Shown here in pieces: positions 13,700 to 34,007 of a stretch of DNA of 39,267 nt. Where the stretch lies: positions 1 to 39,267 of the forward strand of contig JACQXW010000021.1 of the NCBI GenBank assembly GCA_016208535.1, given 5' to 3'. The notes beneath the pieces are model-generated. The model had not been told where the DNA came from and did not search any database. It saw only the letters and a list, made by a program, of their open reading frames with translations. A program made the position numbers and the translations under genes. Within the stretch, counting starts at the first letter, position 1. Each line of letters opens with the position of its first letter. The stretch is from Candidatus Terrybacteria bacterium (GTDB taxonomy: Bacteria > Patescibacteriota > Minisyncoccia > UBA9983).

Positions 13700-15107
13700 A
13701 GATTAAATATCCTTTTTCCGCATCTTTTATTTCGTATCCGAGTTTTTTTATTTTTTCGCGGAGTTTGTCGGCCTCCTGCCATTGCTGAATTTTGCGCAAT
13801 TCCTCGCGTTTTTCCGCTAAATCAATAATTTTTTGAGGAATTTTTTCTTTTTTAAGCGCCTCTTTCAATTTTAATCCCAAAACTTTGTCAAAATCCAAAA
13901 TAGTAGCCAGCTTTGAGTCATCAGTAATCAGGCGAGATTTTAATAATTCCTGAACTACAGCCAGAGCCCTTGGAATATTTAAATCATCATTTATCGCCTT
14001 CAAAAATTTATCTTTAAATTTTCTATTCTCTATTCTTAATTCTTTCCGCCAACTGGCGGACTTAATTCTTAATATTCTAATCTGGTTATATAATCCATTT
14101 AATCCTCTCTCCGCACTTTCCAAACTTTTCCAGCTGAAATCTAGCGGTTTTCGATAATGTGTCTGCAGGCATAAATATCGAAAGGCTATGGGATTATTAT
14201 TTTTTTTTTCAATATCGCGCAAAGTGTAGACATTACCAAGACTCTTGCTCATTTTTCTGCTCTCAACCAGCAACATGGCGTTATGAATCCAGAAATTTAC
14301 CGGTTTTTTTGCGTTAAATCCAATGGTGCTCTGCGCAATCTCATCTTCATGGTGAGGAAATTTGAGGTCTTCTCCGCCGGTATGAATATCAAACGGCATA
14401 CCTAATTCAGCCTCTCCCATAGCCGAACACTCAATGTGCCAGCCCGGCCTGCCTGGAATGTCTTTCCCAGCCAGCCTAAAATTCCAAAACGGTTCAGTTG
14501 GCTTTCTATTTTTCCAAAGCACAAAATCCTGAATATTTTCTTTCGCGTATTCATCTGCATCAATGCGATTACCAGATTTTAATTTAGACAGGTCTAATTT
14601 TACCAATTGGCCGTACTTATATTTTCTATTATATTTGGCAATATCAAAATAAACCGAGCCATTTTTAATATAAGCAAACCCTTTTTCATGAATCTTTTTC
14701 ACCAATGCCTGCATTTTTTTAATATACTTATTGTCGGCAGCATGTGGAATGGCATTTGGTTTGGTAATATTCATCTTTTTGACATCTTGCCAGAAAAATT
14801 TCTCATATTCTTTGGTGAGTTTTACCAATGCTTGTTTCGGTTTAGTAATCGGATATCTTATTTTAGAGTCACGGATTGTTTTGTCGTCAACATCGGTAAT
14901 ATTCATCACCCATTTTATTTTTTTATCGCCGAAATTATATTTCAACATCCGCGCCAAAATGTCGGCAAAGACATAAGCGCGCAGATTGCCAATATGAGCA
15001 AAATTGTAAACAGTGGGCCCGCAGGTATAGAGTCCGACCTTGCCTCTTTTTATCGGCTTAAAAAATTCTTTTTTTTTAGAGAGAGTATTGTAAAATTTTA
15101 AATCCAT
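13674..15107 (-). CDS. cysS: cysteinyl-tRNA synthetase
   Basis: HIGN and KMSKS motifs, plus CGPTVY. The start is set at MDLKFYNTLS (15107). The 3' end overlaps murG convergently by 26 nt. Confidence 0.95.
   Translation of the reverse strand: MDLKFYNTLSKKKEFFKPIKRGKVGLYTCGPTVYNFAHIGNLRAYVFADILARMLKYNFGDKKIKWVMNITDVDDKTIRDSKIRYPITKPKQALVKLTKEYEKFFWQDVKKMNITKPNAIPHAADNKYIKKMQALVKKIHEKGFAYIKNGSVYFDIAKYNRKYKYGQLVKLDLSKLKSGNRIDADEYAKENIQDFVLWKNRKPTEPFWNFRLAGKDIPGRPGWHIECSAMGEAELGMPFDIHTGGEDLKFPHHEDEIAQSTIGFNAKKPVNFWIHNAMLLVESRKMSKSLGNVYTLRDIEKKNNNPIAFRYLCLQTHYRKPLDFSWKSLESAERGLNGLYNQIRILRIKSASWRKELRIENRKFKDKFLKAINDDLNIPRALAVVQELLKSRLITDDSKLATILDFDKVLGLKLKEALKKEKIPQKIIDLAEKREELRKIQQWQEADKLREKIKKLGYEIKDAEKGYLIFRSVGERD
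14021..14081. repeat. composite insertion in cysS: CTTAATT-type heptamers interrupted by a 19-nt hairpin unit
   Basis: ttctatt ctctatt cttaatt [ctttccgccaactggcgga, 14042-14060] cttaatt cttaata ttctaat. On the coding strand it encodes LRIKSASWRKELRIENRK. Confidence 0.7.
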
Positions 15108-16012
15108 TTTTTTTGTTTGAACCAGATGAGCATTGTTGTAATGGACAAAATTATTATTCCCACAATAATCCAAAAATCTCCTTTTATACCCAAAATCGGC
15201 GTGGAAACAGTACCCATACTAAATAGGGCGGTGAGCAGCATCATGGGGAAGGTAAGAAAAGAAAGGGTGGCCAAAAATCTCATAATGTCATTGGTTTTAT
15301 CCGTCAAAAGAGAATCATTTGTGCTTTGCAAAGATTCCATCGTCTCTTTGCAGTTGTTAAGAATGTTTTTCACTCGAGCCAACTCGCCGCTTATATTGTT
15401 TATATAATGAACAAAGTCCTGTCCGAAAAATTCCTTGCCGGACAATTCCAGAGAATTTAAAATACTCTCGTGGCCGTAAATTGACCGCTGAAAATCAAGG
15501 GTGTCCCGTCTGACACAAGAAATAACTTCAACCATCTCAGCCTCTCTGCCCTTAAAGATATTATCCTCAATGTTATTTATTTTTAATTGGATATGATCAA
15601 GCTGTCTTAAGGCAAAATTGTAAAGCTGGCGGATTATAAAAAAAACAAGCAGTCCCGGATTTTTTATCATATTATCTTTGCCAAGTATGGAACCGACCTC
15701 AAAAACTTTCGTCAGTTCGTAGAGCGGAGTGATTGGCTTGTAATGGGCGGTGATTAAAAAATTTTTCCCGATGATAAAATCTATCTCGTAGCTTATGGAA
15801 GTCTTGCTTTCTTGTTCAAAAACAGGGAAATGCATGATGAGATAGATAAAGTTTTTATAAACATCAACCTTGGGCCGAATGGTCGGTTTTAAAAGCTCCT
15901 CTGCCACCAAGGGATGAATGGAATATTTCTGCATCAATGACTTTACCTCCTCCGCCGTAGGGCATTCCAGATCAATCCAGGTTATTTTGTTTTGTTTAAA
16001 GGTGGAAATCAT
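15098..16012 (-). CDS. corA: CorA-family divalent cation transporter with a non-canonical pore motif
   Basis: Two C-terminal TM helices and a KKWI tail, as in CorA. The position of YGMNF reads FSMGT. The start is set at MISTFKQ (16012). Confidence 0.75.
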   Translation of the reverse strand: MISTFKQNKITWIDLECPTAEEVKSLMQKYSIHPLVAEELLKPTIRPKVDVYKNFIYLIMHFPVFEQESKTSISYEIDFIIGKNFLITAHYKPITPLYELTKVFEVGSILGKDNMIKNPGLLVFFIIRQLYNFALRQLDHIQLKINNIEDNIFKGREAEMVEVISCVRRDTLDFQRSIYGHESILNSLELSGKEFFGQDFVHYINNISGELARVKNILNNCKETMESLQSTNDSLLTDKTNDIMRFLATLSFLTFPMMLLTALFSMGTVSTPILGIKGDFWIIVGIIILSITTMLIWFKQKKWI

Positions 16013-16040
16013 AGTGTTTTTATTATAGCATAGAATAAAA

Positions 16041-32910: not shown

Positions 32911-32994
32911 GCCCGGGTGGCGGAATTGGCAGACGCGCACGACTCAAAATCGTGTGGGAGCAATCCCATGGAGGTTCGATCCCTCTCCTGGGCA
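32911..32994 (+). tRNA. tRNA-Leu (anticodon CAA), class II with long variable arm
   Basis: Acceptor GCCCGGG/CCTGGGC, anticodon stem CACGA/TCGTG with loop CTCAAAA, variable arm GGGAGCAATCCC, T-arm GGAGGTTCGATCCCTCT, discriminator A. Confidence 0.92.
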
Positions 32995-32996
32995 TA

Positions 32997-34007
32997 ATGG
33001 CAAAAACCTATCACATCATCACCTTTGGCTGTCAGGCGAATTTGGCAGACAGCGAGCGCATTGCGCGGAAATTGGAAATGAGCGGATATAAAATGGTGGC
33101 TAAACCGAAGTCAGCCAACCTTATTGTTATTAACGCTTGCTCGGTGCGGCAATCGGCGATTGATCGCGTGTACGGCAGAATAAGAGAATTATCGGCCCAA
33201 GGCCGACCAGCCTCGGGCTGGAAAAATAAAAAAATAATTTTGGCTGGTTGCGTGCTTGAAGTAGATAAAAGAAAACTTAAAGATAAAATTGACGAATTCT
33301 GGCATCCGGATGAATATTTTGACCTAGTGCCTATTGGCTCTGGTTCTAATGTGGCCTACATCCCGATTATGACCGGCTGTAATAACTTCTGCACCTATTG
33401 CGCCGTGCCCTATACCCGCGGCCGCGAGCGCTCGCGGCCGGCAAAAAATATTATAAAAGACGTAAAAAACGCTCTAAAAAATAAGATTAAAGAAATCTGG
33501 CTGTTAGGACAAAATGTGAACAGCTATAAATATGATTTTCTAAAATTATTAAAAACAATCAACGATATTGCTGGCGATTTTAAAATTCATTTTATGTCAT
33601 CTCATCCCAAAGATTTTTCTGATGAATTAATAAAAACTATCGCTGAATGCAAAAAAGTTTCCAGAGAAATTCATCTGCCAGCGCAATCGGGAGATAATAT
33701 GATACTTAAAAAAATGAACCGCAAATACACCGTCGGCCGCTACAAAAAACTTATCAAAAAAATCCGTAAGGCGGTTCCAGATATAAAAATTTCCACTGAT
33801 ATCATTGTCGGCTTTCCCAGTGAAACAGAAAAACAATTTCAGAACACGGTAAAATTATTTAAAGAATTAAAATTCAGCAAAGCGTATATCGGCAAATACT
33901 CTCCCCGCCCCGGCACCCCGGCGGCAAAAATGAAGGATGACGTGTCGATTAAGGAGAAAAAACGACGCTGGAAAATATTAAATGAAATCGCAAACCCAAA
34001 AAAATAA
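32997..34007 (+). CDS. miaB: radical-SAM methylthiotransferase, MiaB-like, without a TRAM domain
   Basis: N-domain (YHIITFGCQAN, INACSVRQSA), CNNFCTYCAVPYTRGRERSR, and adjacency to miaA. The start at 32997 is chosen because the longer ORF overlaps the tRNA. Confidence 0.75.
   Translation: MAKTYHIITFGCQANLADSERIARKLEMSGYKMVAKPKSANLIVINACSVRQSAIDRVYGRIRELSAQGRPASGWKNKKIILAGCVLEVDKRKLKDKIDEFWHPDEYFDLVPIGSGSNVAYIPIMTGCNNFCTYCAVPYTRGRERSRPAKNIIKDVKNALKNKIKEIWLLGQNVNSYKYDFLKLLKTINDIAGDFKIHFMSSHPKDFSDELIKTIAECKKVSREIHLPAQSGDNMILKKMNRKYTVGRYKKLIKKIRKAVPDIKISTDIIVGFPSETEKQFQNTVKLFKELKFSKAYIGKYSPRPGTPAAKMKDDVSIKEKKRRWKILNEIANPKK
33193..33221. repeat. two tandem GC-rich mini-hairpins inside the miaB-like gene
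   Basis: cggcc-caa-ggccg, then a, then ccagcc-tcg-ggctgg. Encodes AQGRPASGW in a linker region. Confidence 0.7.

Follow-up and report, generated by a model that had tools for sequence, protein, structure and literature searches.

A tRNA-Leu fragment carrying 19-nucleotide hairpin modules is the conserved 5′ part of a small GIY-YIG cassette in Patescibacteria

How does a tRNA gene come to be interrupted by hairpins of one size, and are the hairpins inside protein genes of the same DNA products of the same process? This question is raised by the contig JACQXW010000021.1 of a Candidatus Terrybacteria bacterium (assembly GCA_016208535.1), whose 39,267 nucleotides (nt) are hereafter called the window. 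The initial annotation described a 19-nt mini-hairpin unit at four loci: a disrupted tRNA-Leu copy, cysS, the 5′ hairpin of rel, and a miaB-like gene. We found that the “disrupted tRNA-Leu” forms the 5′ portion, itself conserved, of a small selfish cassette that many Patescibacteria carry. In this cassette, part of a stable-RNA gene (in the window, tRNA-Leu(CAA) positions 1–42) is followed by a gene for a GIY-YIG nuclease of about 78 amino acids (aa), and then by a functional tRNA gene.

The window, a groundwater contig, is AT-rich (~39.5% GC) with housekeeping genes typical of Patescibacteria/Parcubacteria, and its closest MiaB and CysRS homologues lie in Patescibacteria metagenome bins. Two Logan contigs match it at 100% identity. 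The motif CGCC-N3-4-GGCG occurs in it 10 times, as compared to 0.48 expected, and GC hairpins (stem of at least 5 bp, loop of 3–4 nt) occur 23 times, versus 7.5 ± 2.9 in dinucleotide shuffles.

We aligned the disrupted copy with the intact tRNA-Leu(CAA) gene at 32910–32995 (plus strand; ARAGORN, Rfam). In a gap-tolerant global alignment, 32549–32667 corresponds to tRNA positions 1–42 with three insertions of 38, 19, and 19 nt, at 32564–32601 (two 19-nt units), 32610–32628, and 32638–32656 (boundary ambiguous by 1 nt). These lengths are exactly those first reported, and the CGCC-NNN-GGCG motif is indeed present in all four units. On the plus strand, the first tRNA segment, S1 (32549–32563), copies positions 1–15, comprising the 5′ strand of the acceptor stem, the 5′ strand of the D-stem, and the start of the D-loop. 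It is followed in the D-loop by two tandem 19-nt copies of module A: cccgccGAAggcggg + caag (32564–32582), which the relative L168 carries at the same site, and tccgccTTAggcggg + caag (32583–32601), with caag at both flanks. S2 (ttggcaga, 32602–32609) is the remainder of the D-loop, and module I2, ttta + gtcgccTTTggcgac (19 nt, 32610–32628), stands where the D-loop meets the 3′ D-stem. S3 (cgcgcacga, 32629–32637) provides the 3′ strand of the D-stem, position 26, and the 5′ strand of the anticodon stem. A decayed module B, ttcgccTACggcgca + taaa (19 nt, 32638–32656), lies at the anticodon stem/loop junction, where L169 and L172 have the intact module tccgccAGAggcgga + taaa. Finally, S4 (ctcaaaatcgt, 32657–32667) comprises the anticodon loop and the 3′ strand of the anticodon stem, with an ATG directly after it. 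Contigs of four independent groundwater runs match positions 32300–33300 with zero differences, and the same architecture is conserved in independent assemblies; the tRNA-Leu region is therefore no assembly artefact.

Might the inserts be archaeal-type tRNA introns, or the parts of a split tRNA, that are spliced to yield a functional molecule? They lie at positions where non-canonical archaeal tRNA introns are known, and the outer gene of L168 has both tRNA halves. The window copy, however, stops at position 42 and runs into the open reading frame (ORF), and because its entire 3′ half is missing, the reading as bulge-helix-bulge introns or a split tRNA is rejected. Moreover, an intact tRNA-Leu(CAA) always stands beside the fragment in the tRNA-Leu cassettes, the inserts are plain hairpins at loop junctions with no bulge-helix-bulge motifs, and the host is bacterial. 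We accordingly give splicing almost no credence. Another candidate that we considered is a TIGR-Tas array; such arrays occur in Patescibacteria and have 36-nt units, with alternating 8–12-nt repeats and 9-nt spacers, beside Nop-domain Tas genes (PMC12045711). This reading is rejected as well, since there is no Tas gene and no dual-repeat periodicity, and the “spacers” are colinear tRNA segments.

The ATG following S4 starts the gene (32668–32904, plus strand) of a 78-aa single-domain GIY-YIG nuclease, which matches PF01541 with 63 bits and no other domain. The best solved relatives of the protein are the UPF0213 proteins 1zg2 (E = 2e-4) and 1ywl, and then SLX1. Its homologues show 47–78% identity. 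We compared the window with relatives in fetched loci (L-numbers), about 2 Mb in total; the further cassettes were reached via GIY-YIG homologues of 49–78% identity and, for L084, via miaB. L167 and L170 are duplicates, and among distinct loci L169/L172 count as one, as do the tRNA-Trp loci L084/L086. On this count all nine distinct genes of this type (the window and eight further loci) adjoin tRNA or tmRNA, and a hidden Markov model search of all the fetched loci detected no gene of this type away from tRNA/tmRNA. The cassettes lie at tRNA-Leu(CAA) in L166/L167, L168, L169/L170/L172/L173, L171, and L174; at a tRNA-Leu of L084, reached via miaB; at tRNA-Trp in L084/L086; and at the 3′ end of tmRNA in L175, where the duplicated fragment is downstream of the ORF. 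Every one of the nine contains a fragment of the neighboring RNA gene with hairpin inserts, and in seven of them these are 19-nt modules, which supports the GIY-YIG link suspected at the outset. The other two are the tRNA-Trp cassette, which has one 24-nt hairpin plus tail, and the L084 tRNA-Leu cassette, which is cut by the contig end. The neighborhoods of the cassettes vary (parB/miaB, topA, RNase J, parA). The ATG of the nuclease gene abuts the tRNA fragment in most of them. In L168, L169, and L171, the fragment segments show 2–5 differences to the window fragment, as compared to 8–12 to their own downstream tRNA. The fragment thus travels, or is conserved, with the nuclease gene. A scan of viral contigs for I2 plus S3 gave 0 matches.

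What, then, is a module? In both the tRNA-Leu and tmRNA cassettes, it is a 15-nt GC hairpin (6-bp stem, 3-nt loop) plus a 4-nt oriented tail, 19 nt in all. The tail is TTTA or CTTG, or, on the opposite strand, TAAA or CAAG; read on the appropriate strand, every module consists of the tetranucleotide TTTA or CTTG and then the 15-nt hairpin. Three types recur: I2, ttta + gtcgccNNNggcgac; A, cccgccNNNggcggg + caag; and B, tccgccNNNggcgga + taaa. The global alignments to tRNA positions 1–42 gave insertion lengths of 38/19/19, 19/38, 19/19, 19/19, 19/19, 19, 19/19, 38, and 39 nt (nine fragments, eight loci). A discrete 19-nt hairpin unit therefore exists, as 13 of the 14 cleanly aligned cassette insertions measure 19 or 38 nt, and one measures 39 nt. 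All of the insertion points are loops or loop–stem junctions, either of tRNA arms or of other modules. I2 always stands between ttggcaga and cgcgcacga, in every tRNA-Leu cassette readable there (the window, L166, L168 twice, L169, L171, L172, and L174), while the A and B sites differ by cassette: in the D-loop after position 15, at the anticodon stem/loop junction after position 31/32, and, in L174, after position 9. Modules stand alone, follow one another in tandem (as in the window), or are nested. An example of nesting is L166, where ttta + tccgccATAggcgga interrupts an A module (cccgcc...ggcggg + caag) just past its loop, before the 3′ arm, and the insertion measures 38 nt. The tmRNA fragment of L175 has two 19-nt modules next to each other in its T-arm: tccgccGAAggcgga + taaa and cttg + gtcgccTCCggcgac. 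We also considered the 4-nt tail as a target-site duplication. This formally fits the second tandem A unit, which has caag on both sides, and fails for I2, for B, and for A elsewhere.

The conservation of I2 (TTTA-GTCGCC-NNN-GGCGAC) is high: among seven sequences from six loci, 17 of the 19 columns are invariant, and the two varying positions are loop bases. For comparison, the third codon positions of the GIY-YIG ORF show 50–63% identity between different cassettes. For a pair with 56–63% neutral identity, 16 unchanged sites have p = 1e-4 to 6e-4.

Does this conservation mean that the modules are immobile structures of the nuclease leader? On that account, they would be selected for stability, for translation control, or for blocking the mis-pairing of fragment and downstream tRNA, and their positions would reflect old rearrangements. 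The I2 stem and tail are conserved while the loop is free, and the ATG abuts the fragment in most cassettes, as expected for a leader. In addition, a promoter-like site, TTGATT-17-TATATT with TG (32502–32530, plus strand; consensus match only), lies ~10–20 nt upstream of the fragment, with a similar sequence upstream in L166 and L081; on this motif match, the fragment would be the 5′ leader of the GIY-YIG transcript. Against this account, the modules of L175 are downstream of the ORF, in the 3′ tmRNA fragment; one module type is found at different sites per cassette, nested or in tandem; a 39-nt GC hairpin in the anticodon loop distinguishes L082 from L081; and the same core hairpins occur in unrelated coding genes. 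We consider an immobile leader unlikely.

Two further observations concern this region. A second promoter-like site, TTGGCA-18-TAAAAT (32873–32902), lies within the 3′ end of the GIY-YIG ORF, at a position from which transcription would begin at the 5′ end of the intact tRNA. The DNA coding for the conserved C-terminal motif of the GIY-YIG protein, SGVGRK, includes the tRNA D-loop octamer ttggcaga. Rfam at gathering thresholds reported the four tRNAs of the window only, and no RNA family over the fragment or the hairpins. The listed RNA-seq runs share only 4% of words with the window, probably from conserved tRNA only, and no relevant RNA run was found.

The tRNA-Leu loci themselves turn over in structure, in that the nuclease ORF is sporadic at the miaB-linked tRNA-Leu: it is present in the window and in L084, and absent from L083 and L081/L082 (a metagenome scan for miaB relatives yielded three close loci only). 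L083 has a plain tRNA-Leu there, while in L081 and L082 the tRNA-Leu is broken by other hairpin-flanked inserts. In these two, the outer tRNA-Leu has lost its 5′ acceptor strand and carries a 38-nt hairpin at the D-loop site used in the window; at the I2 site, ttta and an 11-bp inverted repeat enclose a complete second tRNA-Leu. This is a complete tRNA-Leu(CAA) nested in a degenerate one (L081 9700–9960, L082 7700–7990), with the inverted repeat CCCCGCACTAA/TTAGTGCGGGG. L082 alone has the 39-nt GC hairpin in the outer anticodon loop, and its close relative L081 lacks it. L168 has a complete outer tRNA-Leu with modules, split by the ORF and an inner tRNA-Leu. L169 and L172 share ~91% identity upstream, and their nuclease genes are 99% identical. 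Because this identity ends after tRNA position 15, the pair suggests a recombination breakpoint in the D-loop, replacing the tRNA gene downstream of the nuclease gene; the two near-identical nuclease genes are followed by different tRNA-Leu(CAA) bodies (L169 1745–1829, L172 1444–1528). Separately, in L081, a close relative of the window organism, ARAGORN detects at 2916–2989 a tRNA with the anticodon CUA, labelled tRNA-Pyl, which could be an amber-reading tRNA.

Are the hairpins in coding genes the same 19-nt unit? In cysS (ORF 13674–15173, minus strand, continuous), a hairpin is present as had been noted, namely the 16-nt palindrome TCCGCCAACTGGCGGA at 14045–14060. The 19-nt unit proposed there (14042–14060) is untenable, because its removal gives 13 stop codons, whereas deletion of 18 nt (14043–14060, the palindrome plus 2 nt) leaves a clean ILRIK|ELRIEN junction. 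The best model is thus an in-frame 18-nt insertion encoding SASWRK, within a (GAATTAA)n stretch of heptamer periodicity. A comparison of 38 orthologues shows a hypervariable hotspot of insertions here, between two “ELRI” motifs encoded by heptamer repeats, and other orthologues carry hairpin-like inserts there (PLRQGFGGQANY, NYPPATQASSLALRAG, and SARDY). The CysRS structures in the PDB are too distant to set the insertion boundaries. The “ELRI” motifs derive from (GAATTAA)n, which is one of several heptamer-periodic families in the window, present in spacers and in frame in rsmH, cysS, miaA, and other genes: (GAATTAA)n at 2312–2359, 7929–7976, and 14005–14080; (CAGCCGT)n at 10237–10293 and 34499–34528; (CGAAGCA/CGAAATT)n at 6399–6518 and 16360–16409; and (AATGCAA)n at 16606–16651 and 23753–23858.

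In miaB, the two tandem GC hairpins of the initial annotation are present, while their size is 15 nt rather than 19 nt: they form an in-frame 30-nt insertion (33192–33221, plus strand) of two abutting hairpins, tcggccCAAggccga and ccagccTCGggctgg, encoding SAQGRPASGW. The six closest orthologues (78–80% identity) lack it, similar inserts appear patchily at the same site in distant orthologues (SAQGRSASGG, SAQDRSASGE, SARGGSA), and a 92% copy of the double hairpin is present in another contig of the same metagenomes. In L001, a ~60-nt array of four GC hairpins is found in two copies (~93% identical; 4755–4820 and 10190–10255), one outside miaB and one in frame within miaB (ISARGVRQRSIRLWRRSAFGGK).

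Further genes of the window carry hairpins of this kind. In rsmH (2752–2767, plus strand), TCCGCCAGCTGGCGGA encodes PPAGG in a loop where the solved homologues are about 4 residues shorter. This 16-mer has five copies in the 2 Mb of fetched loci (window rsmH, L081 topA, L081 miaB, L024, and L088), and the L081 copies are net 12-nt gains relative to close orthologues. In htrA (38489–38504, minus strand), TTCGCCAGTTGGCGAA encodes SPTG and is a net gain of 12 nt relative to the L082 orthologue. A C-terminal processing protease gene contains ATTCGCCAGCTGGCGAAT, which encodes SPAGE (18014–18031, plus strand), and miaA contains CCCGCCAAATGGCGGG (34067–34082, plus strand), with zero net length change relative to its orthologues. 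The hairpins of cysS, rsmH, htrA, and miaB are related in their GC cores: cysS and rsmH have the same TCCGCC/GGCGGA stem, htrA has the variant TTCGCC/GGCGAA, and miaB has other GC stems. Within coding sequences these hairpins survive only if they keep the frame, at 12, 15, 18, or 30 nt. In a variable segment of topA (29145–29167), a perfect hairpin with a 10-bp stem, tgtcggaaacTCGgtttccgaca, has no net gain relative to orthologues, and is of the kind that template switching could create.

The rel hairpin is different again. It had been read as a 24-bp hairpin at the 5′ end of the gene into which a 19-nt unit (30229–30247) was later inserted. The rel orthologues start with MDVNEII. The corresponding DNA of the window is ATGGAAGTCAA[72 nt]TGAAATT; the hairpin belongs to 72 nt inserted in frame behind codon 4 and not to the 5′ untranslated region. 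The insertion (30212–30287, plus strand) is a 68-nt Y-shaped element (30216–30283) with a duplicated tcaa (30212–30215 and 30284–30287); the arrangement is tcaa|element|tcaa, as compared to the single gtcaa in the orthologues. Its ends are the 13-nt terminal inverted repeats CCCCGTTAGAAGT/ACTTCTAACGGGG, which are common to the window, L082, and L176. In L082, a 70-nt element with the same termini is flanked as ttga|element|ttga in an intergenic spacer, and L081 provides the empty site with a single ttga. A third copy is found in a contig of a viral collection. The interiors of the three copies differ completely, and the folded copies form three-way junctions (window z = −8.7, L082 z = −6.4); no fetched genome fragment showed more than one copy. 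Because the element has terminal repeats, a target duplication, and sister copies, 30229–30247 is one inner branch of its core rather than a later insertion. Judged by its sequence, the rel element is a separate, miniature inverted-repeat-like family.

The lengths at the four loci are therefore 19/38 nt, ~18 nt, 68 nt plus a 4-nt duplication, and 30 nt, and 19 nt is not common to them. Nor is there a general peak of 19-nt indels between the closest pairs available: in a small set of ~9 kb of good alignment, L081/L082 and other pairs show hairpin indels of 12, 15, 39, and 74 nt. The proposal that the units share architecture and no sequence also falls, since stems recur between genomes, with GTCGCC/GGCGAC, CCCGCC/GGCGGG, and TCCGCC/GGCGGA all found in different ones, and TCCGCCAGCTGGCGGA occurs five times. 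Could repair, by template switching or hairpin-templated synthesis, nevertheless generate hairpins de novo in 19-nt quanta, with a shared architecture and no shared sequence? Perfect hairpins of unique sequence with no net length change, as in topA (29145–29167) and miaA (34067–34082), would be expected from quasi-palindrome correction, and the completely different interiors of the three rel-type copies would also fit. However, identical stems and tails recur across genomes, I2 is kept over deep divergence, the insertions outside the cassettes are 12, 15, 18, 30, and 72 nt rather than 19 nt, and the rel element is bounded by conserved terminal repeats and a target-site duplication. De novo repair in 19-nt quanta is thus improbable. 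The shared stems, together with the terminal repeats, duplication, and sister copies of the rel element, favor mobile sequences over the structure-generating mechanism suggested earlier; as far as the sequences can tell, they point to discrete mobile families.

Which enzyme, then, would mobilize them? The window encodes an IS200-like Y1 transposase (25205–25843, minus strand; PF01797, 31 bits), in which the HFH and YIHKN motifs are HUH-like. Inverted 23-nt palindromes, TGACCYAAACCWGGTTTRGGTCA, stand on either side of the gene at 25185–25208 and 25858–25881, just as RAYT genes lie between REPs. REP elements carry the tetranucleotide GT[AG]G. The layout of the modules, a tetranucleotide plus a palindrome, is likewise REP-like (PMC3116915), and the hairpins could on these grounds be REP-like elements mobilized by this transposase. 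Yet TGACCYAAACCWGGTTTRGGTCA is unrelated to the GC hairpins and occurs in the window only at the Y1 locus, the 19-nt modules co-occur with GIY-YIG in seven of nine distinct cassettes, and no Y1 gene is present in the fetched flanks (1.2–1.5 kb for the loci found via the nuclease). Mobilization by the Y1 enzyme is very improbable, somewhat more so than de novo repair. A third copy of the palindrome lies in frame within the Y1 ORF itself (25654–25677, encoding VDLNLVWD), in a RAYT/REP-like arrangement. Elsewhere in the window, a 23S-rRNA-intervening-sequence protein gene (12114–12485, PF05635) lies between inverted (GTAATAA)n repeats (12081–12116 and 12534–12561), and a similar repeat is present at 18335–18370; the gene and its repeats (12081–12561) may be another small mobile cassette. 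A PD-(D/E)XK nuclease family gene (PF12705) is located at 21055–22122 on the minus strand.

How might the nuclease and the modules work together? The closest known system, by analogy, is the pairing of Ssn nucleases with hairpin repeats, REP/RAYT being the other analogue. Ssn proteins are small single-domain GIY-YIG, site-specific nucleases of single-stranded DNA (Chenal et al. 2025, PMC11893778), and their genes are flanked by hairpin repeats (SRM/NTS) of 20–50 nt with a conserved oriented flank, a non-essential loop, and many genomic copies (PMC11893778). We propose that the cassette is probably a selfish element in which an Ssn-like nuclease acts on the hairpin and tail of the 19-nt modules. 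On single-stranded DNA, the small nuclease would recognize a module by its hairpin plus tail. Modules would be moved and duplicated either when single-stranded loops are cut and joined again or by gene conversion. The modules split the 42-nt direct repeat into pieces of no more than 23 nt, and because the repeat is broken in this way, the nuclease gene may be stabilized against deletion by recombination. They would also destroy any nuclease target in the leftover tRNA copy. These steps are modelled on Ssn and REP/RAYT, while the cassette architecture, the quantised modules, their loop placement, and the I2 conservation are features of the loci themselves.

Several points weigh against this proposal. 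The sample of loci is biased, as they were fetched via miaB and the GIY-YIG gene. In the ~2 Mb of fetched loci, complete 19-nt modules, tail included, are confined to cassettes. They also flank the nuclease gene on a single side, which is upstream for the tRNA cassettes and downstream for the tmRNA cassette. The module pattern is largely inherited, and the independent 19-nt events are fewer than the raw count, roughly 6–8. The downstream tRNA of the window and that of L166 match the fragment segments completely or almost completely, and protection against self-cleavage is thus an incomplete account of the inserts. Finally, the window protein is 38% identical over 53 aa to the GIY-YIG protein of L001, which is flanked by NTS-like hairpins. 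As the nearest solved relatives are UPF0213 proteins and the identity to the L001 protein is only 38%, membership of the Ssn clade (cd10448) is unproven, and the window protein is treated as working like Ssn by analogy. The L001 gene (16230–16660) encodes 94 aa and lies between thyA-like and folA-like ORFs, with flanking hairpins that resemble Neisseria NTS/SRM (gtcattcctgcggaagcaggaatcc).

A further and doubtful possibility is that the 78-aa GIY-YIG protein and the 19-nt modules propagate themselves as a pair, which may then be the smallest mobile DNA unit so far described. Hairpins extruded from tRNA genes or modules would be cut by the nuclease in their single-stranded loops, and a 19-nt hairpin would be inserted. 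In a bolder and likewise doubtful variant, the hairpin-interrupted tRNA fragment would act as a nucleic-acid guide or decoy; the nuclease, which lacks a DNA-binding domain, would thereby be steered to tRNA-Leu genes, leading to tRNA gene replacement. The divergence of L169 and L172 after tRNA position 15 is consistent with this variant.

The cassette layout—an RNA-gene fragment, quantised 19-nt modules, a mini GIY-YIG gene, and a functional tRNA—is conserved, and our literature searches found no published description of it. Through it, genes for tRNA and tmRNA are linked to the pairs of small GIY-YIG proteins and hairpin repeats described recently. If the protein is a single-stranded DNA nuclease with a 19-nt recognition module, it would be a compact addition to a family proposed as single-stranded DNA tools. 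More generally, the streamlined genomes of Patescibacteria still carry several families of very small hairpin elements, which rewrite loops of essential proteins (CysRS, MiaB, RsmH, HtrA, TopA) and the N-terminus of Rel. In annotation, in-frame hairpins and tRNA fragments lead to false frameshift or pseudogene calls and to apparent protein insertions.

How does the cassette compare with known systems? Like Ssn, the window protein is a small single-domain GIY-YIG (78 aa, PF01541 only), its gene adjoins GC-rich hairpin repeats with related hairpins elsewhere in the genome, and the oriented flank is conserved (the TTTA/CTTG tails) while the loop is unconstrained (two loop bases vary in I2). Unlike the Ssn repeats, the modules are 19 nt instead of 20–50 nt, have no similarity to NTS, lie on one side of the gene only, and are located inside a duplicated tRNA or tmRNA fragment, nested in loops; the protein also appears to be closer to UPF0213 (1zg2, 1ywl) than to the NTS-flanked GIY-YIG. 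NTS are rarely intragenic, at 2% (PMC11893778), whereas the cassette core hairpins are common within genes, and the word “tRNA” has zero mentions in the main text of the Ssn paper (PMC11893778). Similarly to REP/RAYT (PMC3116915), the modules are tiny non-autonomous units of a tetranucleotide plus a hairpin that cluster, nest, and adjoin a single-copy nuclease or transposase gene. In contrast, the place of the Y1/HUH protein is taken here by a GIY-YIG nuclease, the modules have about half the length of those units, and the Y1 gene of the window has its own palindromes, different from the GC hairpins.

Free-standing GIY-YIG homing endonucleases also occur beside tRNA genes, as phage T4 SegB does (PMC2988022, PMC13096335), and rRNA genes of Candidate Phyla Radiation bacteria are reported to contain short insertions as well as ones that encode GIY-YIG proteins, placed at the top or base of a stem-loop (PMC11270868). 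The cassettes share with both a nuclease gene in or beside a stable-RNA gene and a patchy presence among relatives, and with the rRNA insertions the placement at the tops or bases of stem-loops. The 78-aa protein, however, is a catalytic domain only, without the DNA-binding domain that reads a long homing target, and instead of being interrupted, the target gene has been copied in part, with conserved hairpin modules in the leftover fragment. Mitochondrial hairpin elements include the yeast GC clusters and the double-hairpin elements of Allomyces. Repetitive hairpin-forming elements are also found in sponge mitochondria (PMC2800124). Those elements and the hairpins described here are alike as short GC-rich hairpins that spread in compact AT-rich genomes, genes included; the host type is different, and the combination of a nuclease with a tRNA-fragment cassette is found here. 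Finally, the Rickettsia palindromic elements, ~150 bp long, lie in frame in unrelated housekeeping genes and are tolerated by the proteins (reviewed in PMC10969869). The rel element and the GC hairpins in cysS, miaB, rsmH, htrA, and topA resemble them as in-frame palindromes, and differ from them in the length of the inserts (12–72 nt) and, for the rel element, in the terminal inverted repeats and the 4-nt TTGA/TCAA duplication.

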